Shown one piece after another: positions 5,029-25,069 of a DNA stretch of 64,000 bases. Source of the DNA: a virus (lineage: Duplodnaviria; Caudoviricetes); IMG/VR virus record IMGVR_UViG_3300028364_000013; one strand, given 5' to 3'. The notes beneath the pieces were generated by a model. That model saw nothing but the letters and a program-made list of their open reading frames with translations. It was not told the origin of the DNA and did not search any database. Within the stretch, counting starts at the first letter, position 1. Every line of letters starts with the position of its first letter. The translations under genes were made by a program, and so were the position numbers.

Positions 5029-5159
5029 GAAAACTTAAACTAAACTACAAAAAGCGTTATCATTAATTTGGTAACGCTTTTCTATTTTTATTATAAATAG
5101 ATAAAAAATATAAAATCGAACCCCAATTTCACAATTAAGTTTATAGGGCTATTAACTTG

Positions 5160-5233
5160 CACTCCGTATCGGATTCAAACCGATGGTCTTCTCATAGAAA
5201 GTGAGACGTGTTGGGTCGCTACACTAACGGAGC
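5160..5233 (-). tRNA. tRNA-Glu(TTC), non-canonical D and T loops
   Basis: GCTCCGT/ACGGAGT acceptor; TCTCA-CTTTCTA-TGAGA anticodon arm; T arm ATCGG-TTTGAAT-CCGAT; D loop lacks GG. Confidence 0.75.
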
Positions 5234-5236
5234 GTT

Positions 5237-5321
5237 TGGTCTTGCGTATCGGATTCGAACCGATGAACCTTTCGGGCTGCCTTGAAAGGGCAGTTACTTT
5301 GAGCCGCTTGTATAACGCAAG
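5237..5321 (-). tRNA. tRNA with TTC anticodon, extended (type II) variable arm and encoded CCA
   Basis: CTTGCGT/ACGCAAG-A-CCA; 3-bp D stem; CTGCC-CTTTCAA-GGCAG; variable region CCCGAAAGGTTC; T arm ATCGG-TTCGAAT-CCGAT. Confidence 0.8.
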
Positions 5322-5496
5322 AAATATAAGCACAAAAAAAGAGGATAACACTTGTGCTATCCTCTTGACTACGATTTTGCGATTTAAAAATCCCTCAATC
5401 TGGTTTGTTAACTTAGAGCATAGCGAAGTAGTGGAGTCTCCTCCAAACGTTCACTGTTCTCTATGTTTACAAATCTTTTCATTTTCTTATTTTTTG

Positions 5497-5569
5497 TTGC
5501 GCAGGCCAGACTCGAACTGACGACCTCAAGATTATGAGCCTTGCGAGCTACCAACTGCTCCACCGCACT
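5497..5569 (-). tRNA. tRNA-Met(CAT), initiator-like
   Basis: GAGC-AGTTGGTA-GCTC D arm; CAAGG-CTCATAA-TCTTG; A1:A72 mismatch as in fMet tRNAs, but lacks the three G-C anticodon-stem pairs. Confidence 0.85.
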
Positions 5570-10839: not shown

Positions 10840-10907
10840 GCCTACAAGCCTCCGTAACAGGGGGCTTTTTTGTGCTTTGTAACTTTTTGAATTCCTATCG
10901 TTATACA

Positions 10908-10975
10908 CATGGAGACGGGCACGACATTCAAAAATGGCGGAAGAGTAGACTCCAACCTGCCTTAAACTTTTTTGA
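10908..10975 (+). ncRNA. Candidate small RNA, AAGAGTAGACTCCA family copy 1
   Basis: Lies between promoters 10877 and 11001; only an 18-codon ORF that is not conserved in the other copies; ends in a T-tract. Confidence 0.55.
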
Positions 10976-11060
10976 CCTATATTTTATTGTTTTAGGCGTT
11001 TTGTAACTTTTTGAATTGCCATCGTTATATAGTCATAACCAATAAAAAAACATTAAGACA

Positions 11061-11255
11061 ATGGCAGTTTATACACTACATAACAACTCTGGAGATTACC
11101 TGCACGCCAAGTCAATAAGCAAGCAAAAAATGATTGATGCCTGCAATAGTTTGAGATTTGGAGCAAAAGTTTGTGAAGAGTATTTAGCTCCATCTCCCTG
11201 GGATAAAGCAAAAATTACCAAGCACGCTAGAGAAATTTATAACAATAAAAAATAA
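11061..11255 (+). CDS. Hypothetical protein
   Basis: After promoter 11001. Confidence 0.75.
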   Translation: MAVYTLHNNSGDYLHAKSISKQKMIDACNSLRFGAKVCEEYLAPSPWDKAKITKHAREIYNNKK

Positions 11256-11262
11256 GAAAGCA

Positions 11263-11493
11263 ATGTCAAGATTTAGAATTAAAGATAGAGATACAGTTAA
11301 AGCAACAGCAACCTGCTCAAGAAGTGGAAAGCTTTTAGCAACACTATACGATAGTGGCTTTACAACAATTAATAGCGCTAGGTCAGCTTTGATGAGGAAG
11401 ATACCCTTCTATGGCGGAAAGTTAATAAGCATTTCAATTACAAATATTGATGAAGAGACACATAAGTCTTTTGACGTTAAAGTAAACCGATAG
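11263..11493 (+). CDS. Hypothetical protein, paralog of 14761-14982
   Basis: Shares FRIK..DT.KAT..CS.S.K.LA..YDSGFT.I....SALMRKIPFY.GKL...FDVKVN. Confidence 0.85.
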   Translation: MSRFRIKDRDTVKATATCSRSGKLLATLYDSGFTTINSARSALMRKIPFYGGKLISISITNIDEETHKSFDVKVNR

Positions 11494-11550
11494 TTTGTAA
11501 CTTTTTAAATTCCTGTCGTTATACACTTGTAACCAATAAAAACATTAGAC

Positions 11551-12357
11551 ATGAAGACTGTAAAATTAAACAACAAGACTTATTATATTGACGGTGTTTC
11601 AGGAGCACTTAAGGAGCTGTTGAATAGAGCCAGCAAAGAACGCAAAGAAGCTCTTTTATTCGAACAGCCAGAAGCAATTTGCTTTTACAACCACAAAAAC
11701 TTTCAGGGCAACCCAGATTACTTAGGTGATGCTGTAGGAATTCTTGAGAATGTTAAACAACCAACAGCTCAACAGGTACGCCACGCAATGATATGGGGTC
11801 TTGGATACCCAGGTGAAGGTCTGGATTACATGATTAAAGCAGGAGGTGAAAGTAATTCTGATAGTATGTTCTCTTCATGCCTTAAGGTAATGATAGCTCA
11901 CCCAAAGACTGGTCTGGATACTGATGTTGTTGTTCTTAAGAAGTACAGCACAAAAATTGAAGACGTTTATATTACTGAGGCTGAGGTACGTGAATTATAC
12001 AAATTGTGCCAAACGCCAGAAGAGACAAAAAAGATTAACCAGACAAAGGTTGAAGGAGCTATTGGAATGCTCTGGAGAACTTTCCAAGGCTTCAAAGTTA
12101 ACATTAGTGGAAACAATAGAATTGCAACAAAGAAGCACGTTGAAATGATGACGCAGTTTCTTTTTGAAGTTGGTACGCCAGAAGCAATTGAAATTCATAT
12201 TAATAGAATGATTAAGAACCAAACTCGAAACCTTTCCACAACTTTAAATGAAGAGGCTTCAAGCCAGACAACAGCAGAATTTCACGCAACAGCAAGAGAG
12301 AGGTTGGCATTGCTTGACAATTTCAAAGTCTCCCTATTAGATAGGCAAGCAGCATAA
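11551..12357 (+). CDS. Hypothetical protein
   Basis: 268 aa after promoter 11495. Confidence 0.85.
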   Translation: MKTVKLNNKTYYIDGVSGALKELLNRASKERKEALLFEQPEAICFYNHKNFQGNPDYLGDAVGILENVKQPTAQQVRHAMIWGLGYPGEGLDYMIKAGGESNSDSMFSSCLKVMIAHPKTGLDTDVVVLKKYSTKIEDVYITEAEVRELYKLCQTPEETKKINQTKVEGAIGMLWRTFQGFKVNISGNNRIATKKHVEMMTQFLFEVGTPEAIEIHINRMIKNQTRNLSTTLNEEASSQTTAEFHATARERLALLDNFKVSLLDRQAA

Positions 12358-12447
12358 GTAAAGTCTCCCTTTGTGCGTTTACGCCAAGTAGCGAAGCGGA
12401 TTGTAACTTTTTAAATAATAATCGTTATAAAATAAAAACACGATACC

Positions 12448-12810
12448 ATGAACAAAGAAATTTACCAAGGAATTACCAAAGATGACGTATGGGGTGAATA
12501 CACTGAAGCAGGTGACCCAAGAGGTTCTCACAAAAAGATTAGTCAAGGAATGATTATAGCTCAAGGAATTCCTTATAAGCCAAACTCACCAGAAGGTAAA
12601 GACCTTTCAAAAAAGATTGGCGTTCCTGCTATTTGTCCAATAACAAAAAAGACTCTACCTTATAAGAGTGTAAGTGTTGTATGCAAAGCAGAAGACCAAG
12701 GAGCAGTTGAATACTGGTTGGAATATGTACACGGAGCACACAGCATTGATGGTACAGCAACGCTTGATGATGGTAAGGTTGTTATAATTTCTAACTATAT
12801 GTGTTGGTAG
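12448..12810 (+). CDS. Hypothetical protein
   Basis: After promoter 12401. Confidence 0.8.
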   Translation: MNKEIYQGITKDDVWGEYTEAGDPRGSHKKISQGMIIAQGIPYKPNSPEGKDLSKKIGVPAICPITKKTLPYKSVSVVCKAEDQGAVEYWLEYVHGAHSIDGTATLDDGKVVIISNYMCW

Positions 12811-12868
12811 TTTTGTAACTTTTTAAATCCGTGTCGTTATATACTTGTAACATAAAAAATATAACAAC

Positions 12869-13429
12869 ATGAGTATTAAAAACACATTGGCGACAGCCTC
12901 AGAATTAAAGATTACTTTAAAAAAGTTAAAGACCTTTCCAGGACATGATGGAATGGAGGGATTTGACGCAGATATTTGTGTGGATGGCAAAGCTGTCCTG
13001 CACGTATATGACAGCGCACATGGTGGATGCTTTGAGTACAGCCCAATTGGAACTGACTACAAACAAGCAAGAAACGTTGAGGCTGAATTAGAAGAGAAGT
13101 TGAAAACCTTTCCTGAACATGAAACAGAGATGGGTGGTGGACGAACTTACTCAAGCCGTGATACACTTGATTGTGTAATTGGTGCGCTTGTTTCTGAAGC
13201 AGGATTTCAAAAACAATTAAATAGAGATGCTAAAAAAGGAATTCTTATTGAAGTACCGAATGGCTACAGCATTATTTCATTCAAAGCAGGTACAATTACA
13301 GCAATGCTTAAAAAGTACAAGCAGGAGGCTGTGGCAACTATGCTTCAGGGCGTAGTGAAGAGAGAACTTAAAGCAGGAAACAAAATTCTAAACTTAGAAT
13401 ACCTAAAGTCAATAGGTGTAAAAGCATAA
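12869..13429 (+). CDS. Hypothetical protein
   Basis: After promoter 12813. Confidence 0.8.
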   Translation: MSIKNTLATASELKITLKKLKTFPGHDGMEGFDADICVDGKAVLHVYDSAHGGCFEYSPIGTDYKQARNVEAELEEKLKTFPEHETEMGGGRTYSSRDTLDCVIGALVSEAGFQKQLNRDAKKGILIEVPNGYSIISFKAGTITAMLKKYKQEAVATMLQGVVKRELKAGNKILNLEYLKSIGVKA

Positions 13430-13512
13430 AACTAAAGCCCTCATTGACGTGGGGGCTTTTTGTAACTTTTTAAATTACCATCGTTATACACTTGAACTAA
13501 TAAAAAAACATT

Positions 13513-13725
13513 ATGAAAAAATTAATTTTTACAGTAGAAATAGAATTTGAAGATAAGGTGTGTTCAGATGGAGATATTCGTGAAGTCATGCACAATGTTG
13601 CAGATGGTTTGTCATTTGCAGCTGATAGAGAAGGGCTTGCACCTGAAGATAGTGAAACATTTACAAGAAAAATTAAAGTTTCTTCAAGTGTTATTGATGA
13701 TTCTGTTGAGAAAGTTATAGTTTAA
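13513..13725 (+). CDS. Hypothetical protein
   Basis: Bounded by class A promoters. Confidence 0.75.
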   Translation: MKKLIFTVEIEFEDKVCSDGDIREVMHNVADGLSFAADREGLAPEDSETFTRKIKVSSSVIDDSVEKVIV

Positions 13726-13782
13726 TTGTAACTTTTTAAATTGCCATCGTTATACAAGTGAACCAATAAACAAATACATATT

Positions 13783-14592
13783 ATGAAAATAATTCAAAAA
13801 AGTGATTTTTACAAAGTAGCATTAGCAGCAATAATTGTTGAGAAGGGATTCAACGTCAGAACAGACCTTGGAGACATTGATGCGCTCGCTCAGTCAATTG
13901 CAAAACTTGGACAGCAGACTCCAATTATTGCAACGAAAGTTCGTGGAGAGGACAAATTCCTCTTGACAGCAGGACACCGTAGATTGGCAGCAATTGCGAT
14001 TGCCAACAAAAAGTATGGTGCAAACATTACTCACGTAAATGTGATGAGCGCAAAAGGAGATGAGAAAGGTCGTGTCTTAACAATGTTGCTTGATGGAGAG
14101 GCTTCAAAGAAACTTTCAGCCTCTGAGATGGCTACTGGGTTTGCAAGACTTAAAGCAATGGGAATGAAGCCGTTGGAGATTGGTGCAAACGTAGGTCTTT
14201 CACAAGCGCAGGTGTACAACATTATTAATGTCACCAAAGCACCTCAGACCATTCAAGACATGGTTGAGAAAGGATTGATTTCTGTGGCTCTTGTGAATGA
14301 GATTCAGAGAACAACCAAAGACCCAGAAGAGCAAGTGAAGTTGGCAGAAGAGGCTGTGGCAAATGCGAATGTTGATGCAGGGGATGAGGATGGAGAGCCA
14401 AAGAAAAAGAAGGCTACCTCAGCAAATGCTAACACAAAGAAATTGTCAGCGGATGTTGCCAAGTTGGAAGCAGCAATTGAACTTGCAATTGAGGATAACC
14501 CTGCAAGTGGTAAAGCAGCAGTACTTAAAGCAATTGTTAACAAATTGAAGTCTAAGGCTTCGGCAGAAGATATTGCCAAGCTATTGAAATAA
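13783..14592 (+). CDS. ParB/Srx-family protein with HTH
   Basis: FNVR...LAQSIAKLGQQTPII...LTAGHRRLAA ParB N-terminal motif; IGANVGLSQAQVYN HTH. Confidence 0.85.
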   Translation: MKIIQKSDFYKVALAAIIVEKGFNVRTDLGDIDALAQSIAKLGQQTPIIATKVRGEDKFLLTAGHRRLAAIAIANKKYGANITHVNVMSAKGDEKGRVLTMLLDGEASKKLSASEMATGFARLKAMGMKPLEIGANVGLSQAQVYNIINVTKAPQTIQDMVEKGLISVALVNEIQRTTKDPEEQVKLAEEAVANANVDAGDEDGEPKKKKATSANANTKKLSADVAKLEAAIELAIEDNPASGKAAVLKAIVNKLKSKASAEDIAKLLK

Positions 14593-14629
14593 GATTGATA
14601 GGGAGGAATTCACACCTCTCCCTTTTTTC

Positions 14630-14699
14630 GCTCCTATCAGTTGGTAGAAAGCTGGGCTTCTAAAACCCGCAGTCCACGGTTCGAACCCGTGTGGGAGCA
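14630..14699 (+). tRNA. tRNA-like gene with CTA (amber) anticodon and truncated D arm; possibly a pseudo-tRNA
   Basis: GCTCCTA/TGGGAGC acceptor; TGGGC-TTCTAAA-ACCCG anticodon arm; 5-nt variable loop; CACGG-TTCGAAC-CCGTG T arm; about 4 nt missing at positions 8-11. Confidence 0.6.
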
Positions 14700-14760
14700 C
14701 AAGTTGTAACTTTTTAAATCACCATCGTTATATAATTAACTAATAAAAAACCAAAATAAA

Positions 14761-14982
14761 ATGTTTAGAATTAAAGAAACAGATACAATTAAAGCAACTG
14801 TATGTTGCTCAAAAAGTAGAAAAATTTTAGCTTCAGTATATGATAGCGGATTTACAAGAATTAGCCAAGTTGAGTCAGCGTTAATGAGAAAGATACCTTT
14901 CTACAGCGGTAAATTGCTATATGTTTCGATTGTAAATATAGACAAAGAACTATGTAAGACTTTTGATGTTAAGGTTAACTGA
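14761..14982 (+). CDS. Hypothetical protein, paralog of 11263-11493
   Basis: High similarity by eye. Confidence 0.85.
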   Translation: MFRIKETDTIKATVCCSKSRKILASVYDSGFTRISQVESALMRKIPFYSGKLLYVSIVNIDKELCKTFDVKVN

Positions 14983-15151
14983 TAGAATTGTAGGGATGTC
15001 TCACCCAGTTGTGGGTCACGGAAGAGTTAAGAAGGATAAGATTCTAATTCGAAGTCTCCCTAAGTGGTACCAGAAATTTGGATTCGTTAAGACTCCTGAA
15101 TACACTGAGAAAAAAAAAAAAACGTACAATGTTGTACACTCCAAAAACTAA
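14963..15151 (+). CDS. Small basic hypothetical protein (start possibly 14996)
   Basis: Fills the gap between co-oriented ORFs. Confidence 0.55.
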   Translation: MMLRLTDRIVGMSHPVVGHGRVKKDKILIRSLPKWYQKFGFVKTPEYTEKKKKTYNVVHSKN

Positions 15152-15156
15152 ATAAC

Positions 15157-15525
15157 ATGAGCAGCATAGATAATAAATTCGAACAGTACCTGAATACCTT
15201 GGACCAAGTAGTGGCAAATATGTTAAGAGCAGCTGTTGAAGTAATTCCACAGGACCAGAGAAGAAAGTTCATTATTGATAACTGTCCAGTGAAAGCCCCT
15301 GTAGCAAATGACGCTAACTCAGACATGGCAGAGCACTGCTTGCCTGAAGAACCTAAGTCAAGAATATGGACTGTTGAAGTTTGTCGAACAACTCACGCCT
15401 TCAGAACAATGAAAGTTGTAGCAACAACTGAACAAGAAGCTTGTGAGAATGCAATTGACGCTGCTGGTGATGTAGAGTTCGGAAGTGGTGAGGCAGATTA
15501 TTCAACTCCAGACGGAGCATACTAA
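15157..15525 (+). CDS. Hypothetical protein
   Basis: 122 aa. Confidence 0.75.
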   Translation: MSSIDNKFEQYLNTLDQVVANMLRAAVEVIPQDQRRKFIIDNCPVKAPVANDANSDMAEHCLPEEPKSRIWTVEVCRTTHAFRTMKVVATTEQEACENAIDAAGDVEFGSGEADYSTPDGAY

Positions 15526-15622
15526 AATTATAAATTTAGAAAACGTTCTTTGAAGTATTGTTTTATAAAAATAGAAAACAGAGTTATTTTGGTTTTTCAT
15601 TTTTATTTTATATATTTATTAA

Positions 15623-16721
15623 TATGAAAGATATATTAATAAAATTTAAAAAGGTTCATGGTGAATTGTATGATTATTCATACGTAGATTATAAAGACAG
15701 ATTAACTAAAGTAGCTATAGGGTGTAAAGTTCATGGTGAATTCCTTCAAACTACAGCAGCCCACATTAGTGGCCAAGGTTGTCCAGAGTGTGGTAAAATT
15801 AAAAGAAGGATAGGGAAGAGAATTACTTTTGATGACTTCCTGATAAGAGCTAAAGATAAACATGGAAACAAATTTTCTTATAATAAAGAATCTTATGTTG
15901 ATATAGAAAAAGCTTTTGTTATTGTATGCCCTAATCATGGTGAGTTTACACAGTCTCCCAAAACTCATATAAAGAGTCACGGTTGTCCAAGATGTGGAAA
16001 CAACTCTGCATCACACAAACTCTCCCTTACTCGTCAAGAGTTTGTAGATAAAACTATCAGCGTTCATGGTGACAAATTCATTTATGATAAAGTCAAATAT
16101 ATCAACAATAGAACTCCTATTATTATAACTTGTAAGTTTCATGGAGATTTTAATCAAAAACCTAATTATCATTTATCTGGAAATGGTTGTCCTAAATGTG
16201 GAGGCACCTCTAAACTTTCTCTTGAAGGCTTTATAGATAGGAGTAATTTGATTCACGATTTTAAATATGATTACTCTAAATCAGAATTAATCAATAGCAA
16301 AAAAAAAGTTAAAATAATTTGCTTAAAGCATGGAGAATTTATGCAATCTCCCTCTCACCATATGATGGGCTCAGGATGCCCAACATGTAATGAGTCTAAA
16401 GGAGAAAAGTTGGTTGCAAAAATTCTTAAAGAAAAAAGCGTTAACTTTGTAAGACAAAAGAGATTTAAATATTGCAAAAATAAAGCAGTTCTCCCTTTTG
16501 ATTTTTATTTACCAGACTTAAATGTTTTGATTGAATTTGATGGTGCGCAGCATTTTTATCCTTGGAGATTAAAAGATACAGAAGTTGCAAAATTAAAACT
16601 TAAGAAGACACAAGAAAATGACCTTATCAAGACTGAATTTTGTAAAAAAAATGAAATTAAATTATTAAGAATTCGTTTTGATGAGAATGTTAAAAATAAA
16701 TTAGATAAACTATTAAAATGA
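15623..16721 (+). CDS. Homing-endonuclease-like protein: four zinc-ribbon (DUF723-like) repeats plus C-terminal PD-(D/E)xK/Vsr-like nuclease
   Basis: Repeats of C..HG.F.Q....H..G.GCP.C; LPFDFYLPDLNVLIEFDGAQHF C-terminus. Confidence 0.85.
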
Positions 16722-17695
16722 AGCCAGGCCAAAACATAATTAAACAAATAGAAGACGGGAATTTCAATTTAAGTTCGCATCCAGTTTTTAGTCATAATCC
16801 AAAAAGATTAATGGATATTGGTTTTAATAAATCTCTTGAGTTAATTAAAAGAAGAGTTGGAGACCACAATCTCTCCCCAGTATATTTATTTAATTTATAT
16901 AAAACGTATCAATTTAAAATAGATATTATTGAGAGTAGCATTAAATCAGAGCTTGAACAAATAGCGGAAGATACAATTAGAGAAATGTATGATGTACCAG
17001 AAGATATAAATATTAAACCAAAGATTGTTAATCAAGATGATATTGAATATGATTTTGACTCTGAAAATGAAAAAATAGAAGTCTCCCCAGAAAGACTAAG
17101 ATTAATAAAAGAAGAAGCAAATAAAAGAATAATACTAAATTCTATTGTTCATGGTTCATCTGTTATGATTTGGTCAAGCGCATATTATATTGTAAAAGAA
17201 AAACTTGATGAATTAAATAATAAATTAATTGAACTATATGATATTTATTCTGCAGTTGTTAGTTATTTACTTTGGCTTCAGGAACCAAGTCAAGATTTGT
17301 CTGGAGTAGAAAAACAAGGAGTTTGTGAAATTGATTTTGAAGATGGATTAAGTTGTGAAGGAATAAATTTTCCAGTACTTTTATTGGAGACAAATAAAGT
17401 GGTGATTGATTATCTTATTTGTAAAGGTATACCAACCGATTTTAGTGAAGAAGAGTTAAAATTATATTATGCTCTTTCAGATGATTATAATCAAGAAATT
17501 TGGCATAATACATTGTCTCCAGTTATATATTCTGATTTTTTAGAAACAATAGAAATAGAATCAAATAAATTACCTGATGTAATATCAAAATTATCTCAAC
17601 TAAATTATGAAGAATTAAAAACTGTGTTCATATCTATACAACAAGATTCAAAAGAATCAGGAAAAATAGAACTTTTAAAATTTAAAATCGTATAA
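16718..17695 (+). CDS. Hypothetical protein
   Basis: 325 aa, ATGA-coupled; not preceded by a class A promoter. Confidence 0.8.
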   Translation: MKPGQNIIKQIEDGNFNLSSHPVFSHNPKRLMDIGFNKSLELIKRRVGDHNLSPVYLFNLYKTYQFKIDIIESSIKSELEQIAEDTIREMYDVPEDINIKPKIVNQDDIEYDFDSENEKIEVSPERLRLIKEEANKRIILNSIVHGSSVMIWSSAYYIVKEKLDELNNKLIELYDIYSAVVSYLLWLQEPSQDLSGVEKQGVCEIDFEDGLSCEGINFPVLLLETNKVVIDYLICKGIPTDFSEEELKLYYALSDDYNQEIWHNTLSPVIYSDFLETIEIESNKLPDVISKLSQLNYEELKTVFISIQQDSKESGKIELLKFKIV

Positions 17696-17701
17696 TATAA
17701 G

Positions 17702-17848
17702 ATGAGGAATATACAGATGATTGAACCTTTGGTAGAACCAAAGCCAGTTACGAAACCATCTCCAACGGAAAAGCCCAAGGAGAAACCAAGGAGAGGAGAC
17801 CCATGGACAGTGCCCGCACCGAAAGTGAACCCCACTCCAAAGGCCTGA
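17702..17848 (+). CDS. Small proline/lysine-rich peptide
   Basis: 48 aa ORF absent from the track: MRNIQMIEPLVEPKPVTKPSPTEKPKEKPRRGDPWTVPAPKVNPTPKA. Confidence 0.6.
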   Translation: MRNIQMIEPLVEPKPVTKPSPTEKPKEKPRRGDPWTVPAPKVNPTPKA

Positions 17849-17899
17849 ATAATACAGACTGTAACTTTTTAAATATTAATCGTTATAAACATAATAGTC

Positions 17900-18109
17900 A
17901 TGAAGAAGAGAGATTTTAGCATAAAGAAAAAGATTATAAACAAAGGAGAGTATGATATGCTTAGAGGGATGATGACTGATGAAGCATTTTTCGATACATT
18001 CATAGTGTGTGACAAGTTGGTCACAAGAATGCTCGCTGCTGAGGCAGTAACATATGTAGCATTTACAGATGTTTCTCCAGTATACAATGATACAGCAAAA
18101 TTAAACTAA
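17900..18109 (+). CDS. Hypothetical protein
   Basis: After promoter 17859. Confidence 0.7.
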   Translation: MKKRDFSIKKKIINKGEYDMLRGMMTDEAFFDTFIVCDKLVTRMLAAEAVTYVAFTDVSPVYNDTAKLN

Positions 18110-18116
18110 GATAAAG

Positions 18117-19025
18117 ATGAAAACGAAAAGAACATATGATGAAGTTGAGATTATTAATACTCCGTCTATTAAGACAGGGATTAAAACTCTTGACCTGTTC
18201 CTTTCTAACAATGGAGGGTTCGAACTTGGAAACCTGATTCTTATGACAGGAACTTCAGGTGCAGGTAAGACAACTCTTTGCAAACTGATTCAAAGAGAAA
18301 TTAAAAAACCAACATTATTTCACGCCTTAGAAAGTTTAGCGTCTTCAGTTAAGAGACAAACTCTTAGAATTAAAACACATTCCAACTGTTTTATTACTGA
18401 CGGGAAAGATTACCAAGACTTTGATGAGTTCATGGATTTCATTTATAGAGATAAGCCAAGATTTGTTATGGTTGATTCACTTCAACACGCTGTGAAACAA
18501 CTTAGGAAAAAAGGCATGGGAAAAGATGAGGCTTACCACCACGTACTGGACTCTTTATACAGATGGAAAGATGAGACGCAAGGAATTGTAATTCTTATTT
18601 GTCAGTTGAATAAAGACAACACGTTTTCAGGACCGTCAGGAATGTTGTTCGATGCGGATGTTCAGGTACACTTAGAGTACAACTCTAAAACAGGAGTTAG
18701 AACAATGGATACGAAGAAAAATAGAATGGGTCAACTGGACTCGATTTATTATGAGTTCTCTTCAGGAGTTGAGGTGATGAAGTTCTACACTCAAGAAGAA
18801 TGGGATGTAATTAAAATGGGTGTCACTTTGCCAGAGATGTTAATGAACATCATCTTCCAGTATTCAAACGCCTACAGGAACCACGATTCGTATTCTGTAT
18901 TTAAGAAAGAATTCAACAAGAAGATTAAGGTGATTTATAATTCTATTGATGATGACCTTGAGATTTGTTTATCAGTTACAAAACTGATGAGTGAATTAAC
19001 TAAAAAGTATTTTGTAACTTTTTAA
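18117..19025 (+). CDS. RadA/Sms-like RecA-superfamily ATPase (no Zn finger or Lon-like domain)
   Basis: Walker A GTSGAGKTT, Walker B VMVDSLQ, ICQLNKD..FSGP, KNRMG (RadA KNRFG-like). Confidence 0.8.
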   Translation: MKTKRTYDEVEIINTPSIKTGIKTLDLFLSNNGGFELGNLILMTGTSGAGKTTLCKLIQREIKKPTLFHALESLASSVKRQTLRIKTHSNCFITDGKDYQDFDEFMDFIYRDKPRFVMVDSLQHAVKQLRKKGMGKDEAYHHVLDSLYRWKDETQGIVILICQLNKDNTFSGPSGMLFDADVQVHLEYNSKTGVRTMDTKKNRMGQLDSIYYEFSSGVEVMKFYTQEEWDVIKMGVTLPEMLMNIIFQYSNAYRNHDSYSVFKKEFNKKIKVIYNSIDDDLEICLSVTKLMSELTKKYFVTF

Positions 19026-19069
19026 ATAACCATCGTTATACATACACGAACCAATAAATAGAGAGAGAT

Positions 19070-19711
19070 ATGACAAACGTAAAGAAAGATTCAGAACAAG
19101 CTACTAAAGATAAAGCAAACGTAGCAGTGCTTCAAGATATTAATGCCACAGCAAGAGCAAAAGATGATGCTTTTAGTAAGCTGTATGGTAGACACAACCA
19201 ACAAGTCCGCATTCACTTCCTCAAGAGATTGAGAGATACAGATGTTGCTGAGGATTTGCTTATGATAACTTTTGTAAAGGCGCATGAGAACATTAACACT
19301 TATGACCCAAAAGTGGGTGCATTTTCTACTTGGTTGTACAAGATTGCAAACAACTCTTTGATTGACTTGTTGAGAAAAGCAAAGTTCGAAGTTCTTTCTT
19401 TGGATTCGCTTCAAAGTAAGACGTCAGACGACAATGATGGAATGGAATTTCAATTAGATTCAGATACTCCAAACCCATTGCAAATTCTTGTTCATGATGA
19501 GGTAACAAAACAAGTTTCTGATGCAGTTAATTCTATTAAGTCCAAAAAAGTTCGTGAATTAATGATTTGCAGATACATTGATGAAATGAGTTTTGAAGAA
19601 ACGGCAAAGGCTCTTGGTCTTGAATTGAATTCAACACTTAGAACAGCTGTTGCAAGAGGTAAAGAGATTCTTAAAAAGAAATTAGCTAACCTTGAAAATA
19701 ATGTCTCATAA
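19070..19711 (+). CDS. ECF-type (sigma-70 group 4) RNA polymerase sigma factor
   Basis: AFSKLY...AEDLLMITFVKA...FSTWLYKIANNSLIDLLRK (region 2); RYIDEMSFEETAKALGL...RGKEILKKKL (region 4). Confidence 0.9.
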   Translation: MTNVKKDSEQATKDKANVAVLQDINATARAKDDAFSKLYGRHNQQVRIHFLKRLRDTDVAEDLLMITFVKAHENINTYDPKVGAFSTWLYKIANNSLIDLLRKAKFEVLSLDSLQSKTSDDNDGMEFQLDSDTPNPLQILVHDEVTKQVSDAVNSIKSKKVRELMICRYIDEMSFEETAKALGLELNSTLRTAVARGKEILKKKLANLENNVS

Positions 19712-19849
19712 CATAAAACCAACGGTCTTATGACCGACCCCATACTACTGGGATGTGATAGTGTAGTGACTATTGTCTGGAAGTAGTGTTATGATAAAAA
19801 GCTATTAGTTCGGTGAATGAAGCAAAGCGTTAGCGCCAATAGTTTAAGT

Positions 19850-19883
19850 GCCCCGTGGTTATGATACACCACGGGGTTTTTTG
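19850..19883 (+). terminator. Intrinsic terminator
   Basis: CCCCGTGGT...ACCACGGGG followed by T6. Confidence 0.8.
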
Positions 19884-19944
19884 TGCGTTGCCCCGAACGA
19901 GCGCAGCGTTGTAACTTTTTAAATATCCATCGTTATACAAATAA

Positions 19945-20030
19945 GAAAAGGGCCTGGCGGAGAAAGTCGGAAGAGTAGACTCCAACGTGCGTTGGATTTT
20001 GTGAACAAGCTCCAACCTGCCCAATACTCT
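19945..20030 (+). ncRNA. Candidate small RNA, AAGAGTAGACTCCA family copy 2
   Basis: Directly after promoter 19909; core at 19970-19986; second TCCAACCTGCCC at about 20011. Confidence 0.55.
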
Positions 20031-20280
20031 CGTGAAATATAAATTTATAATTTTAGAAAAATAAAGCCCGTTATTAACATATCGCCTAAAAAAGATTGTT
20101 TTAGGTAGAACATTTTAAAATCTCTTACGTATAAGATAATGAAAGAACAAATAGATTTATATTTTTTACACTTTGTAACATTTTGTAACATTTTGTAACT
20201 TTTTAAATCTATGTCGTTATACAGTCATAACCAATGACCGCAGGGCAAGACCTGCTTTGCAGTCGCAAAAAACAATTATT

Positions 20281-21156
20281 ATGAAAAATGAAAATGCATT
20301 TAACTGGGACATTAAGCAAACAGGAATTCTTGACATTAATGGAAACCCTATAAAAGGGTACAAAGAAATTACTCGTGATGACAATGGGTCAAGCATTGCT
20401 GTTATGAAAGAGTCTTATACGCCAATGACAACTCAACAATTCTCTGATACAGCAAACGAAGTTGCAGGTGCAATTGGAGGTTCTGGACTTATTTTTAAGG
20501 ATTGGAATGACAATAGTGTTGAAGGGCAAATGGGAGCTAACAAGCCCGTGATTACTTGTCAGATGGAAATGAGCGAGCCTCTTGAGATTGCAGGCTCAAA
20601 GATTGAAGGTAAGTTAACAATTGGTGTTGGATTTGACGGAGGGCGTAGCTTCTTTATTGGTCACACAAATACTTACCTTAGATGCACAAATGAATTCTCT
20701 TCAATTGTGAAGGACTTCAAAAGCAGACTTACTGTAAATAACATGGTAAGAGTTGAAGACATTATTAAAAACATTCAAACGTATAGAGATTACGAAAGAA
20801 ATTTATACGAAAACTTTGAGAGATTTCATAACACAAAAATTGATGAAAAGATTGTTCAAGAATGTCTTGCACGTCTTGTTGATTTGACTGTTGAAGAGAG
20901 AGCAATGACTGTTAAGGAGAGAAACACAGAGTTGTCTTCTCAAAAGTTGAACAAGATTGATGACATTACTGCAAGTATTAGAACAGAAATGGCAGAGCTT
21001 GGTAACAACGCTTGGGGATTATTCAATGGGGTCACACATTATTCTACACATATTATGAACTCAAGAGGTTCAAATGAGTTGAGTACAATGTTCGGAGCAA
21101 AGAACAAAGCAAACCAAATTGTTTATGGCTTAGGTCTTGAATTACTTGATGCATAA
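20281..21156 (+). CDS. DUF932-family (phage/plasmid) protein
   Basis: FDGGRSFFIGHTNTYLRCTNEF and NNAWGLFNGVTHYSTH motifs. Confidence 0.8.
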   Translation: MKNENAFNWDIKQTGILDINGNPIKGYKEITRDDNGSSIAVMKESYTPMTTQQFSDTANEVAGAIGGSGLIFKDWNDNSVEGQMGANKPVITCQMEMSEPLEIAGSKIEGKLTIGVGFDGGRSFFIGHTNTYLRCTNEFSSIVKDFKSRLTVNNMVRVEDIIKNIQTYRDYERNLYENFERFHNTKIDEKIVQECLARLVDLTVEERAMTVKERNTELSSQKLNKIDDITASIRTEMAELGNNAWGLFNGVTHYSTHIMNSRGSNELSTMFGAKNKANQIVYGLGLELLDA

Positions 21157-21231
21157 GATGCTAAACAACAAACTTAAGGAGAGCAGAAATGTTCTCCTTT
21201 TTTTGTGACCAATTTTGTCTAAGGAAAGTTT

Positions 21232-21325
21232 AGGGCAGGGGTGGATTGCCTGTCAAGGCTGTGCTCTTGACTTTAAGGCACAGGGCACTTATTCTTACCT
21301 TGCCTGTTTCACTCAAGGGACATAG
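21232..21325 (-). ncRNA. Candidate antisense-oriented small RNA from the reverse class A promoter
   Basis: Promoter 21326-21354 points left; only a 4-codon ORF; 3' end TCCACCCCTGCCCTAAACTTT resembles copy 1. Confidence 0.45.
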
Positions 21326-21411
21326 TTATAACGATAATGGTTTAAAAAGTTACAACCGTTGGAATTCTGGTTTTTAATTCATATTTATCAGAAAATCTAA
21401 AACCAACAACC

Positions 21412-21657
21412 ATGAACCTAAAAGAAGCAAAACAATTGTTTGAAGAAATAGTAGAACTTTGTTACCAGACAGAAAATCAACAACTGATTGAAACCATTGA
21501 ACAAATTTATCCAGAAGTAGAAGAAGCAACAGCAGTTTTTAAAGTAATATCTTCAGCTGAAGAATTACAAGTTATCATAAACGAAATAGAATTCCTTCCT
21601 GAAGAAGAAGAGGATGTCCAGGAGCTGCAGGAGATAATCGAAAAGTTGTCAGAATAA
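21412..21657 (+). CDS. Hypothetical acidic helical protein
   Basis: 81 aa. Confidence 0.75.
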   Translation: MNLKEAKQLFEEIVELCYQTENQQLIETIEQIYPEVEEATAVFKVISSAEELQVIINEIEFLPEEEEDVQELQEIIEKLSE

Positions 21658-21714
21658 CATAAATAATTTTTATTTGTAAAAGTCTTTGCGTATCTTTGTG
21701 CAAAGACTTTTTTT

Positions 21715-22284
21715 ATGCACAGAGGAATTATCATATACTTATCAATCCTGATAGGCTTAGCTCTTACAGCTGGGGGTAGCTATTTTATTATTGACAACCT
21801 AATAAAACCACAGGGGTTTATGTTCGAAGGAATCATGGCAGCAGGCCTGGGAATAACATTGCTTATGTCAGTAATCGTTGCCGCAACAATCGGAAAGGCA
21901 ATTATGCTGTTCGGTGAAATCCTGGAGCAGACAACAAAGCTAAATCAGGAAATTGTAAAACAAAGCCAGCCGCAATCCATATCCAGTATATTTCAGGGAA
22001 TGATGCCGCCAGGCTCAAACATGACTGTTACAAACCTGAACACAGGAGAAACATCATCCAATAAACCTGAACTGGGAAAAATGAGTGAGATGATTTTTAA
22101 CGCAATGGCTGCTGGCTTGAGCGGCAAGACAAATGTAGAACTTAAAGATATGAGTGTCAAGGAGTTAGAGAAACTCTTGGCAAAAGCTATTAAGGATGAT
22201 GACTATGAATCTGCAACAGAGATTAGTGCAATCCTGAAGGAGAAGAAGAATCCTGGTTCAGGTGACTCTGAAAATAATTCATAA
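21715..22284 (+). CDS. Membrane protein with C-terminal UVR (UvrB/C)-like motif
   Basis: Two hydrophobic helices; LEKLLAKAIKDDDYESATEISAIL. Confidence 0.65.
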   Translation: MHRGIIIYLSILIGLALTAGGSYFIIDNLIKPQGFMFEGIMAAGLGITLLMSVIVAATIGKAIMLFGEILEQTTKLNQEIVKQSQPQSISSIFQGMMPPGSNMTVTNLNTGETSSNKPELGKMSEMIFNAMAAGLSGKTNVELKDMSVKELEKLLAKAIKDDDYESATEISAILKEKKNPGSGDSENNS

Positions 22285-22319
22285 AAAATAGAACATTCTA
22301 AATTTATAAACGTATAAGA

Positions 22320-22453
22320 TAATGTAGGCTGAAAGATACCTACATTCTAACGAGATTTCCTTTTGGAAGTTTTAGTTGTCTATCCTGAAGGTGGAATATC
22401 CTGACGGAATTGTCTCTTATCAGAAAAGCTCGGTTTTGTCACCGAGCTTTTCG
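22320..22453 (+). ncRNA. Candidate small RNA from class B promoter 22289
   Basis: No ORF; 5' hairpin AATGTAGG/CCTACATT; terminator GAAAAGCTCGGT/ACCGAGCTTTTC. Confidence 0.55.
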
Positions 22454-22554
22454 CTTTTATAGTAAGTTGCTTCGTTACGAACAACGAAGTTGCAAGCAAA
22501 GCGGAAAATGAATTTATTCATTGTAACTTTTTAAATTCCTGTCGTTATACAATC

Positions 22555-22767
22555 ATGGGAAACCCAAATTCAAAAAAACACAAAGCAAACCACGCAGGCT
22601 ACAGAGATAAGCCAGGGCGTAGAGCAATTGACGCACTTTGCGGAATGTACGCTGCAATTGGTAATGTAGAAATTCTGGTTGGAACGCCAGGAGAAGGAAA
22701 GCCGAGACTCGGAACTCCAGTAAACAAAACACAGCCAAAACCAGGTACACAGCTTAGTTTATTCTAA
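22555..22767 (+). CDS. Hypothetical basic protein
   Basis: Bounded by class A promoters. Confidence 0.7.
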   Translation: MGNPNSKKHKANHAGYRDKPGRRAIDALCGMYAAIGNVEILVGTPGEGKPRLGTPVNKTQPKPGTQLSLF

Positions 22768-22820
22768 ATTGTAACTTTTTAAATTGACATCGTTATACAC
22801 TTAAATTAAAAACAATTATT

Positions 22821-23324
22821 ATGAAAAAGTATTTATTAGTATTAGCATTAGCAGGATTGTTCACTTCAATTTCAAGTTGCAAGAAAGAAACAATTGAACC
22901 GAAACCTGAACCAGACACAACAGTTGTCACAACCAATGAACCAGTAGCAATGAACCTTCAGGTTTATTCTTTTGATGACGGCAATGGATTTGCAGGATAT
23001 GACTTCAAAGTTGTCATAAAAAGCCCAAATGAGTCCGTTGACTCTTTGTCTACAACATTCTCCAATTATTCTGATGGAGTTACTTCACCAAACTTTGCAA
23101 CACTTCAATGTAATGTAGATACCAGTCTCGTTTATACGATAGACATATATGATAATGCAAATAATTATTTGTTAACTGTTCCTTTAGAGTTTCATTGGGA
23201 AGATTATATTCTGGCAGTCAATGATGATGCAAGTAGTACAATTACTGGAGAAGTATTTAACCATGATAACATAGAAACACAAAACGCCTCACAGGCTCAT
23301 GTTGTTTTAGCTATTGGTAAGTAA
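22821..23324 (+). CDS. Predicted lipoprotein
   Basis: MKK, hydrophobic stretch, then SSC-KKE; Bacteroidota-type lipoprotein signal. Confidence 0.75.
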   Translation: MKKYLLVLALAGLFTSISSCKKETIEPKPEPDTTVVTTNEPVAMNLQVYSFDDGNGFAGYDFKVVIKSPNESVDSLSTTFSNYSDGVTSPNFATLQCNVDTSLVYTIDIYDNANNYLLTVPLEFHWEDYILAVNDDASSTITGEVFNHDNIETQNASQAHVVLAIGK

Positions 23325-23422
23325 ACTTTGTAACTTTTTAAATTCCTGTCGTTATACAGATATAACATAACCTGCGTGAGATTGTTCATGCAGGTTTTTT
23401 AACCACATTAAAACTTAGAGAT

Positions 23423-23752
23423 ATGAAATTCGTTTACATTATTGAAATTGGACAGCTTAGCAAATTAGAGAACAAATTTAACTTCTATGACATGGAAGTG
23501 TTCCCAAGTCAAAAGGCAGCTGACCATGTTGTTAAAAATATGATTGAGTGTAATACCTCTGGAGATTTTGAAGAACTTGTTAAGCAAGGTGATGTTAGAA
23601 TTGAGAAGTCTGAAGAAGGCGGATTCAAGAGAGGTGAAGTTAGTCATACTGTTTATACTTACAATTGCATGGGGTCTGGATTCAATAACGTTCCTACCAA
23701 AATGACAGTGAGATACGTAGTTAGAAAAATGTTAGTAAACAGAAACTTTTAA
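23423..23752 (+). CDS. Hypothetical protein
   Basis: After promoter 23328. Confidence 0.75.
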   Translation: MKFVYIIEIGQLSKLENKFNFYDMEVFPSQKAADHVVKNMIECNTSGDFEELVKQGDVRIEKSEEGGFKRGEVSHTVYTYNCMGSGFNNVPTKMTVRYVVRKMLVNRNF

Positions 23753-23756
23753 TATT

Positions 23757-23942
23757 ATGGCAGACGCAAGAACAAAACAAACAAGAGTGCTTACTATTAC
23801 AATAGAAGTCTCTTCAGATGTAAAACTTCCTTCAGACCATGAGATGGTCTTAATTGCTGCAGCAGCTTCAGGAGCTATGGCAGACAAAGCAAAAGAGAAA
23901 GGGTTGACGCTCGATAACTTAATAACTCATAGCAATGACTAA
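23757..23942 (+). CDS. Hypothetical protein
   Basis: Adjacent ORF. Confidence 0.65.
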   Translation: MADARTKQTRVLTITIEVSSDVKLPSDHEMVLIAAAASGAMADKAKEKGLTLDNLITHSND

Positions 23943-24270
23943 TTTATTCTGGATACAAAAATATAGACAACAAATTTTCGCTCTGGAGCTTCTGGTGGCG
24001 ATTATTTTTGGACCTGCTCTGGCAAACATCCTGAGCGGCTCCGTCCTGTTAAGCCTGGTAATGATTGCAGCAGTTTTTCTATTTTTAGAAATTACTCTGG
24101 CTTTTACCAGGGTCACCTTTGCGAAGGTAGCCCATGAGAATACCAAGAAGATTTATGATAAGACACAGGCAGCACACAAAAAGATTAAACAGGACTACCA
24201 GGATATGACTGGTGAGCAACTGGACAAGCGCAGGGCAATACAGCATTCAAAAAAGAAACGTAAGCCCTAA
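23935..24270 (+). CDS. Membrane protein (2 TM)
   Basis: Hydrophobic N-terminal half, basic tail. Confidence 0.7.
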   Translation: MTNLFWIQKYRQQIFALELLVAIIFGPALANILSGSVLLSLVMIAAVFLFLEITLAFTRVTFAKVAHENTKKIYDKTQAAHKKIKQDYQDMTGEQLDKRRAIQHSKKKRKP

Positions 24271-24361
24271 GAAGGCAAAAACAATATAAACTAAAAAGAG
24301 ATTATCATTTGGTAGTCTCTTTTTTAATCACTACATTTGCTTACATAAAAATTAATTAGAG

Positions 24362-24598
24362 ATGAGACTTACAGTACACGTATCAGGCGCAAAGAAAGAC
24401 ACGCACGAAAAGAAGACCAAAGAAGGAATTGTTAATGTTAAAAAAACATTTAACACTCTATCGTTCTCAAGTGTGAACCCAGAAGATGTTGGAAGCATCC
24501 TAAACAAGATTAAAGCTGAAGGGCTTGGAGAGCCTACCAAGCATTACCTCTCTAACGAGAAGATTCCTGGTCACGCCAGAGGGAAAAGAAAAGCCTAA
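24362..24598 (+). CDS. Small basic hypothetical protein
   Basis: Host-type promoter upstream; terminator at about 24619-24650. Confidence 0.75.
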   Translation: MRLTVHVSGAKKDTHEKKTKEGIVNVKKTFNTLSFSSVNPEDVGSILNKIKAEGLGEPTKHYLSNEKIPGHARGKRKA

Positions 24599-24709
24599 AC
24601 CCTGAACACAAATATATGAAAACCTTCAGCTATGCTGGGGGTTTTTTTTTGTCCAGTCGGGACTGGTCAAATTCAGATTTGTAACTTTTTAAAAACACAT
24701 CGTTATACA

Positions 24710-24790
24710 AATGTCGATGCGAACAGCGAGACGGGTCTGGTCACCGAGGTGAACCGAAAGAGTAGACTCCAGCCTGCCTTATATTTTCTT
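24710..24790 (+). ncRNA. Candidate small RNA, AAGAGTAGACTCCA family copy 3
   Basis: Between promoters 24679 and 24832; GAGACGGG...AAGAGTAGACTCCAGCCTGCC. Confidence 0.55.
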
Positions 24791-25069
24791 GCCAACCATT
24801 TTGTAAGCGAATCGGAAAAAGATTTTATTCTTTGTAACTTTTTAAATTCTTATCGTTATACAAGTGTAGACAATGAGAGACACATCTACTACCCCAGAAC
24901 TGAAAAACTTATGGCAGGGTTAATCCACTCCTGCCCCAAACTTTTTTGCCCAATTTATTATTTGAGCCTGCTCCATCGAGCACGCAGTGCTTATGCAGAA
25001 TCATTCTTAATAAGCATCATTTAAAAAGTTACAATTTTATAGAACATTTGTTGATAACTTACGTATAAG

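Follow-up and report, generated by a model that had tools for sequence, protein, structure and literature searches.

To our knowledge, few small RNAs are encoded by phages, and almost none of them is understood outside the phages of enterobacteria; as far as we know, moreover, the RNA biology of the Bacteroidota runs without Hfq and ProQ. In ToxI-type RNAs, which imitate a host antitoxin, repeats of 34-36 nt are arranged in tandem, and the toxin cleaves them. In 2023 Camara-Wilpert et al. reportedly described RNA anti-CRISPRs (Racrs), solitary repeat units resembling the repeats of the clustered regularly interspaced short palindromic repeats (CRISPR) of the host. FopS and GibS (Bacteroides, RF04319) and Qrr are host genes that act by base pairing, while HK022 put and the lambda/rrn nut sites (boxB-boxA) act in cis on the polymerase transcribing downstream genes. 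T4 species 1 and 2 (RNA C and D) lie inside a tRNA cluster, are processed from its transcript and still have no known function. Here we analyze a stretch of 64,000 nt from a virus of the Caudoviricetes (IMG/VR record IMGVR_UViG_3300028364_000013), hereafter the window, in which an earlier note had pointed to three stand-alone non-coding units. Sequence comparison confirmed the prediction, in that the three short promoter-driven units appear to be real genes for a folded non-coding RNA of about 65 bases. Our preferred reading, reached by exclusion and given a probability of about one half, is that this is a trans-acting early RNA whose near-invariant folded junction would be recognized by a highly conserved host partner or by a small molecule.

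The RNA resembles each of the described systems in some respects and departs from it in others, and we file it as a new family within the known kind "phage-encoded stand-alone small RNA". Like pseudo-ToxI of PhiTE and the ToxI, CptI and TenpI RNAs, it is a small structured RNA borne by a phage in several copies and could titrate a protein. Unlike type III antitoxin RNAs, however, its units are single, lie kilobases apart and each have a promoter and a terminator of their own, and no host counterpart was found in genome scans (the genes beside the few genome matches were not inspected). Racrs are likewise stand-alone, promoter-driven small phage RNAs and are said to bind a host protein. In contrast to them, the core of the present RNA is essentially absent from host genomes and was not seen in arrays, although the CRISPR repeat collections themselves were not searched. 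With FopS, GibS and Qrr it shares a stand-alone gene of about 70 nt, several paralogues and promoters of the Bacteroidota type, whereas it is phage-specific, has no Rfam match and showed no complementary target in the genomes scanned. As in put and nut, a variable hairpin close to the promoter precedes a conserved single-stranded motif to which a conserved host factor would bind, but the present units end in terminators, precede new promoters and, in Tenacibaculum phage Larrie, face away from genes. Finally, T4 species 1 and 2 are also phage-encoded small RNAs, whereas the present genes are separate and show no linkage to tRNA genes in the 34 loci examined.

Gene copies and family membership

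The element is defined by its core, AAGAGUAGACUCCA, and each unit also has a variable hairpin and a T-rich end. The core pattern AAGAGTAGACTCCANCCTGCC occurs at 10941-10961 (copy 1), 19971-19991 (copy 2, with 2 mismatches) and 24758-24778 (copy 3), against 0.01 occurrences expected in shuffled sequences. Pattern search and covariance model agree on exactly five copies in the 142-kb record, three in the window and two upstream of it, and all of them occupy promoter-to-promoter gaps that are free of open reading frames (ORFs). The core of each window copy starts 35-50 nt 3' of its 29-nt promoter (at 10877, 19909 and 24679), and a further promoter follows each copy (at 11001, 20193 and 24832). 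The description given in the earlier note, of stand-alone promoter-driven units with a variable hairpin and the core, each succeeded by a new promoter, therefore holds under both the pattern and the promoter searches. Its contention that the core is not part of a peptide is equally borne out. The units, 60-80 nt in size, are without an ORF and have no common reading frame: an ATG-to-stop frame spans the core in copy 1 only, the frame of copy 3 stops ahead of it, and copy 2 lacks an ATG. Across the family, 12-30 nt of hairpin separate the conserved blocks, and the lengths are not divisible by three.

In IMG/VR, scanning for an exact 16-mer gave 64 loci, and all but five of the sequence types among them have one layout: a promoter box comes first, then (A)CGGG, the variable hairpin and GGAAGAGUAGACUCCA, and after these a short tail and T-rich sequence. 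The first covariance model (R1) was built from 17 members of equal hairpin length with hand-anchored alignments (MAFFT misaligned the variable hairpin). Covariance-model searches found 1-9 copies per contig in 44 other IMG/VR records, and the carrier records range from 4 kb fragments to complete genomes of 256-360 kb with terminal repeats. About 20 additional IMG/VR contigs came from a scan with a 12-nt core word, at least 120 metagenome contigs carry the exact 22-nt pattern, and 80 metagenome loci, from lakes and from the sea (TARA samples included), gave 100 matches when searched with the model. We read these results as a large family that appears to be carried by hundreds of phages, often in multiple copies, and to be restricted to them. 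Promoters of the Bacteroidota type prevail in these phages, and their genomes run from 47 kb to 360 kb. The family is well delimited and abundant: viromes from the sea and from lakes contain it, as do jumbo phages, and a single contig has up to nine copies. At the least, it merits an Rfam entry and would help to annotate intergenic gaps of carrier phages that now look "empty".

The signals around the RNA are less uniform than the RNA itself. A Bacteroidota-type -7 box, TAnnTTT[GA], lies at most 45 nt upstream of the hairpin in 68 of 106 members and the promoter type of this phage in 5 of the 106, while other subgroups have different phage-specific upstream motifs; a T-run is found at most 40 nt downstream of the core in 63 of the 106. 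Because the upstream signals differ by subgroup, the RNA seems to be joined to whichever early promoter each phage uses. In a subgroup of phages of 47-64 kb with an ORF of 2,700-3,000 aa (L071, L072, L132, L146 and related ones), GCTATACAC or its complement flanks the RNA. Its copies resemble a promoter or terminator signal particular to these phages, and in that subgroup the RNA is located close to contig ends. The 3009-aa ORF of the member phages of about 60 kb has no polymerase match in PHROGs, and an N4-like label for these phages was dropped on that ground.

Among GenBank phages, searched by BLAST with five different member queries, Larrie (ON950054.1, 77.5 kb, a lytic siphovirus) is the sole carrier, with three RNA copies within 2.5 kb; a weak BLAST match (E = 0.1) lies in the 635-kb uncultured phage LR745206.1. 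The RNA genes of Larrie (16931-19468, with copies at about 16931, 18780 and 19413) occupy gaps left unannotated, and all 27 flanking coding sequences are on the other strand. A host-type TAnnTTTG box accompanies each copy, and at the end of one there is a clean terminator of hairpin plus U, with the tail forming part of the terminator hairpin. The published description of Larrie does not mention a non-coding RNA, and none is included in its annotation (PMC10013915). Its host is T. larymnensis LAR25, and the pair is a cultured, lytic, non-pathogen system (PMC10013915). Larrie on T. larymnensis thus makes an otherwise metagenomic RNA directly testable.

No named family had been recognized in the units, and the Rfam 15 covariance searches agree. 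At the gathering threshold the window gives two tRNAs and nothing else; two of the phage's own copies give nothing relevant at E<=10, and six member loci give no match at E<=1. With ARAGORN and RF00005, the sole tRNA matches are three tRNAs at 5159-5569, and the RNA units are not tRNAs. A literature search with the core sequence returned unrelated matches only. The searchable text of a catalogue of more than 10,000 phage RNA candidates (PMC10690425) holds nothing relevant, its candidate lists lying beyond the search, so that the RNA may already be listed there. A distant copy had also been suspected at 5432-5454 (-) in the tRNA cluster, but the covariance model finds no match there at E<=1. 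That segment reads GGAGGAGACTCC and has a small GGAG/CUCC hairpin between tRNA-Met and the second tRNA-Glu.

The predicted fold

Covariation among phage homologs, which had been named as a check on the units, was assessed in 106 distinct members that were parsed and realigned to a three-helix model, with 93 distinct metagenome members as an independent set. Of the cells assigned to helices, 87% are paired in the first set and 91% in the independent one, compared with 74-75% in column shuffles and 26-56% with slid partners. The covariation score is 0.29 and 0.38, respectively, versus 0.12 in shuffles, and none of 500 shuffles attained the observed score. The signal is clear in P2, the variable hairpin. 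The pair that closes it switches between C-G (70 members of the first set, 80 of the set of 93) and U-A (23 and 11, respectively), with U-A in about 20% of members, and at the inner pairs of P2 both sides have changed in 28-54 sequences, that is, in a third to a half of them. P2 is thus firmly supported by covariation in both sets. G-U pairs are frequent in P2, and since the hairpin is so rich in them, the predicted fold shows itself to belong to this strand, as RNA. The loops of P2 are GNRA tetraloops in 16 of 100 cases, and heptaloops of the UGAAAUA type are also common.

P3, the mini-hairpin GAG-UAGA-CUC, has 3 bp and is nearly invariant, which leaves no real covariation test of it. The rare changes fall in the loop (UGGU, UGGA, UAAA, UAUA) or replace A by G so that a G-U pair is kept. 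Since substitutions in the core respect the pairing of the mini-hairpin, they fit better with a structural constraint, probably a helix, than with a linear seed. An H-type pseudoknot through GGAG/CTCC, as suggested in the earlier note, is not supported: GGAG occurs in copy 1 only and is not conserved among family members, which are well described by a nested fold of three helices. The units combine what is looked for in a structured non-coding RNA gene, namely their own promoter and terminator, no ORF, and helices with compensatory changes.

The fold can be followed through the three copies of the window. Copy 1 is predicted to span 10906-10973 (+), or about 68 nt, and scores 57.3 bits with R1 and 57.7 bits with R2 at 10911-10966. 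Its promoter, at 10877-10905 (+), is an exact match to the 29-nt pattern of the extracytoplasmic function (ECF) type. The copy is composed of GGG (10917-10919), P2 (10920-10940), the junction AA (10941-10942), the mini-hairpin GAG-UAGA-CUC (10943-10952), the tail CAACCUGCC (10953-10961) and a T-run (10968-10973), and the promoter after it, at 11001-11029 (+), starts a separate protein-coding unit. Copy 3 (24708-24789, +) scores 50.5 bits with R1 and 54.5 bits with R2 at 24727-24783 and follows an ECF-type promoter at 24679-24707 (+). Here GGG is at 24733-24735, P2 at 24736-24757 (with U-A rather than C-G as the closing pair), the junction AA at 24758-24759, the mini-hairpin at 24760-24769, the tail at 24770-24778 and the T-rich end at 24779-24789. 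The promoter after copy 3 (24832-24860, +) drives a different non-coding unit, described below as B-type (24861-24947).

Copy 2 is a variant. It lies at 19938-20000 (+), scores 43.6 bits with R1 and 42.2 bits with R2 at 19944-19996, and has its ECF-type promoter at 19909-19937 (+), just 3' of the phage sigma gene (19070-19711). GGG (19950-19952), P2 (19953-19970) and the mini-hairpin (19973-19982) are in place. The copy is atypical in that UCCAAC of the core is drawn into a terminator-like hairpin (UCCAAC/GUUGGA, 19981-19996) that is followed by UUUU. A duplicated tail, CTCCAACCTGCCC, lies 3' of it at 20010-20022 (+). A similar duplication, with GACUCCAACCUAC after an inserted hairpin, is seen in an unrelated member (L107:12228-12284 and downstream).

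Possible modes of action

Under the preferred reading, each unit would be an independent gene whose RNA of 60-80 nt is made from the phage's own early promoter of the ECF-sigma type and stops at a terminator that is either T-rich or a hairpin. The RNA would fold into a compact junction formed by a short closing helix (P1, the 5' GGG with CCU of the tail), P2, two purines and the GAG-UAGA-CUC mini-hairpin, and completed by the conserved single-stranded tail C-R-N-C-Y-R-C. This junction would serve as a binding surface for a host protein or complex, or for a small molecule, which would be titrated or redirected early in infection, and the several copies per phage would raise the dose of the RNA. 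It would act neither by long antisense pairing nor as a leader in cis. Trans action is favored because the Larrie copies oppose the flanking coding sequences and because the copies of this phage precede fresh promoters.

The same arrangement bears on the possibility that the units are cis elements, whether a riboswitch or attenuator leader, an antitermination site of the put/nut type, or an elaborate terminator or insulator between gene cassettes. The units do stand directly 3' of promoters and end in T-runs, and in copy 2 and in Larrie the tail lies within the terminator hairpin. Yet a fresh promoter separates each of the phage's own copies from the next gene, and in Larrie the copies point away from all neighboring genes, which makes a role in cis highly improbable. 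Nor is a simple terminator sufficient. Upstream of the T-run, both the conserved core and P2 with its covariation are kept across hundreds of contigs, whereas a plain terminator would not maintain a 14-nt core together with a covarying upstream hairpin across hundreds of phages.

Several points weigh against a trans-acting, junction-binding RNA. The transcript ends used here are inferred, and the trans-binding mechanism itself rests on the exclusion of alternatives. In addition, the searches that gathered the members used exact core words or a model in which the core dominates, and because of this the near-100% conservation of AGAGUAGACUCC is probably in part an effect of ascertainment. P1 is the weak part of the fold: the 5' GGG pairs with either of two CCU-like triplets of the tail (80.5% and 76.7%), and in a duplex test cognate 5' and 3' ends pair no better than non-cognate ones (z = -1.5). 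Members with a flank other than GGG give modest support to the closing helix, with 2.83 bp compared with 2.24 +/- 0.19 by chance. We thus consider P1 (GGG:CCU) plausible, if weakly supported. A long-range pairing between the 5' leader and the tail was tried and rejected; it appears in isolated GUAGGU/ACCUAC cases, and cognate pairs are not better than non-cognate ones. Finally, pairing with host mRNAs through a seed of 6-8 nt may still be compatible with the data.

This last point belongs to a broader alternative, in which the RNA is a base-pairing regulator, the invariant AGAGUAGACUCCAAC serves as the seed for host or phage mRNAs, and the hairpin and the terminator only stabilize it. The layout of promoter, hairpin and terminator and the presence of several paralogues per genome would suit such a regulator, and the conserved stretch lies mostly outside long helices. 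However, no complement of the core of 9 nt or more exists in the phage itself. A 12-nt complement is found in 4 of 201 Bacteroidota genomes, below a reversed-pattern control, and pairing of the core with Bacteroidota 16S and 23S ribosomal RNA is no better than that of shuffled cores. A single 9-nt match to ribosomal RNA was seen in the 23S of one genome; the 9-mer is absent from the partial 23S locus of a second genome, in which the homologous stretch was not located. Besides, the core substitutions respect the mini-hairpin, and near-identity across phages of different host groups would demand an extremely conserved target. We therefore regard base pairing as unlikely, though by no means negligible.

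If the junction binds a partner, that partner is unlikely to be dedicated and phage-encoded, at least at the sensitivity of BLAST, since neighbors do not recur and the carriers share little else. No neighbor protein family recurs across the RNA loci, where hypothetical early proteins, one DUF6011 protein and a weak, sub-threshold ParB_N-like match were found. Whole-genome comparison of six carrier phages left only ribonucleotide reductase, thymidylate synthase (ThyA) and a primase-helicase in common. That no protein partner is evident is also what one might expect of a new self-cleaving ribozyme or of a small-molecule aptamer (for instance, a sponge for an immune signaling nucleotide), with the junction as the active or binding site. 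A small element with a near-invariant junction beside freely varying helices is a pattern typical of ribozymes and aptamers, and some of the helices are GNRA-capped. Nevertheless, neither the ribozyme models of Rfam (hammerhead, twister, pistol, hatchet and hepatitis delta virus-like) nor its riboswitch models match the copies searched, and self-cleavage has no obvious use in a primary transcript of 65 nt with its own promoter and terminator. Catalysis and ligand binding are purely conjectural here, and we hold this account to be rather improbable.

Decoy activity was one speculation of the earlier note, in which the RNA imitates a type III antitoxin. More generally, it could copy a host RNA (a CRISPR repeat, a type III antitoxin repeat or part of a tRNA) and saturate an RNA-guided or RNA-cleaving defense protein. 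Early, multicopy and strongly promoted units would suit titration, and the same phage has three units with a tRNA-Tyr-like 3' end, so that RNA mimicry may be in its repertoire. Against this, only 7 of about 185,000 species genomes contain the 22-nt core pattern, and true members are present in at least 5 of the 7; each time there are one or a few phage-like copies, on short contigs of metagenome-assembled genomes. The covariance model matched nothing in a further 150 Bacteroidota genomes, the units do not occur as tandem repeats, and neither the tRNA model nor any other Rfam model matches them. The RNA is accordingly best described as phage-restricted, apparently neither a host gene nor a copy of one, and mimicry of a host RNA seems very unlikely.

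A bolder version of the preferred reading, which we doubt without dismissing it, is that the RNA is a takeover or counter-defense device made of RNA only. Its aptamer-like junction might sequester a conserved Bacteroidota protein or an immune signaling nucleotide, or might be catalytic, and the RNA would be produced in large amounts during the first minutes after infection and would have spread horizontally among diverse lytic phages with genomes of 47 kb to 360 kb. If the RNA does bind a host factor or signal, it would represent an RNA-based route to host takeover or anti-defense in Bacteroidota.

Promoter landscape and a second kind of unit

The window corresponds to the reverse strand of bases 279-64278 of the 142,155-bp IMG/VR record, which is estimated to be 65% complete, and DNA of this phage is present in lake-water metagenome runs (DNA runs). 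The 29-nt promoter, TTGTAAC-N15-CGTTATA, has 71 same-strand copies, and 3 more on the opposite strand, in a region of about 44 kb that extends from about 18.5 kb upstream of the window to window position 24860; 31 copies are inside the window, where 0 are expected. By its spacing and boxes it looks like a promoter of the ECF-sigma type. The phage sigma gene at 19070-19711 belongs to the sigma-70 family, with a match to Sigma70_r2 at 1e-14. Downstream of most promoters, an ATG and a small ORF follow within 5-37 nt, and many have a fixed leader (GTAACCAATAAA...) ahead of the small ORF. At a minority, the next promoter follows within 110-290 nt with no ORF between. Three -35-like boxes, TTTGTAAC, stand in tandem at 20160-20221, ahead of the promoter at 20193.

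The B-type unit mentioned above has three copies, at 24861-24947 (+), at 21215-21326 (-) and about 0.6 kb upstream of window position 1. Parts of two of them (24913-24947, and 21232-21260 on the minus strand) had been taken for 3' ends related to those of the RNA family. They are indeed real repeats, in that a 15-mer, AATCCAC[CT]CCTGCCC, is common to all three copies, including the one upstream of the window; family membership, on the other hand, is not upheld, as model R1 gives no match on the B-type units at E<=1. In other IMG/VR phages, tRNA-Tyr(GTA) genes have exactly the 15-mer as the 3' half of the T-arm plus the 3' strand of the acceptor, and the pairing of GGCAGG with CCTGCC at 24913-24936 is like that of an acceptor minihelix. 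The B-type units could be truncated mimics of tRNA-Tyr.

Two other promoter-driven units without an ORF, of 110 and 202 nt, lie about 2.3 kb and about 1.5 kb upstream of window position 1, respectively, and have neither the core of the RNA family nor the 15-mer of the B-type units. The 202-nt unit contains four GGGACC repeats and has a strong terminator at its end.

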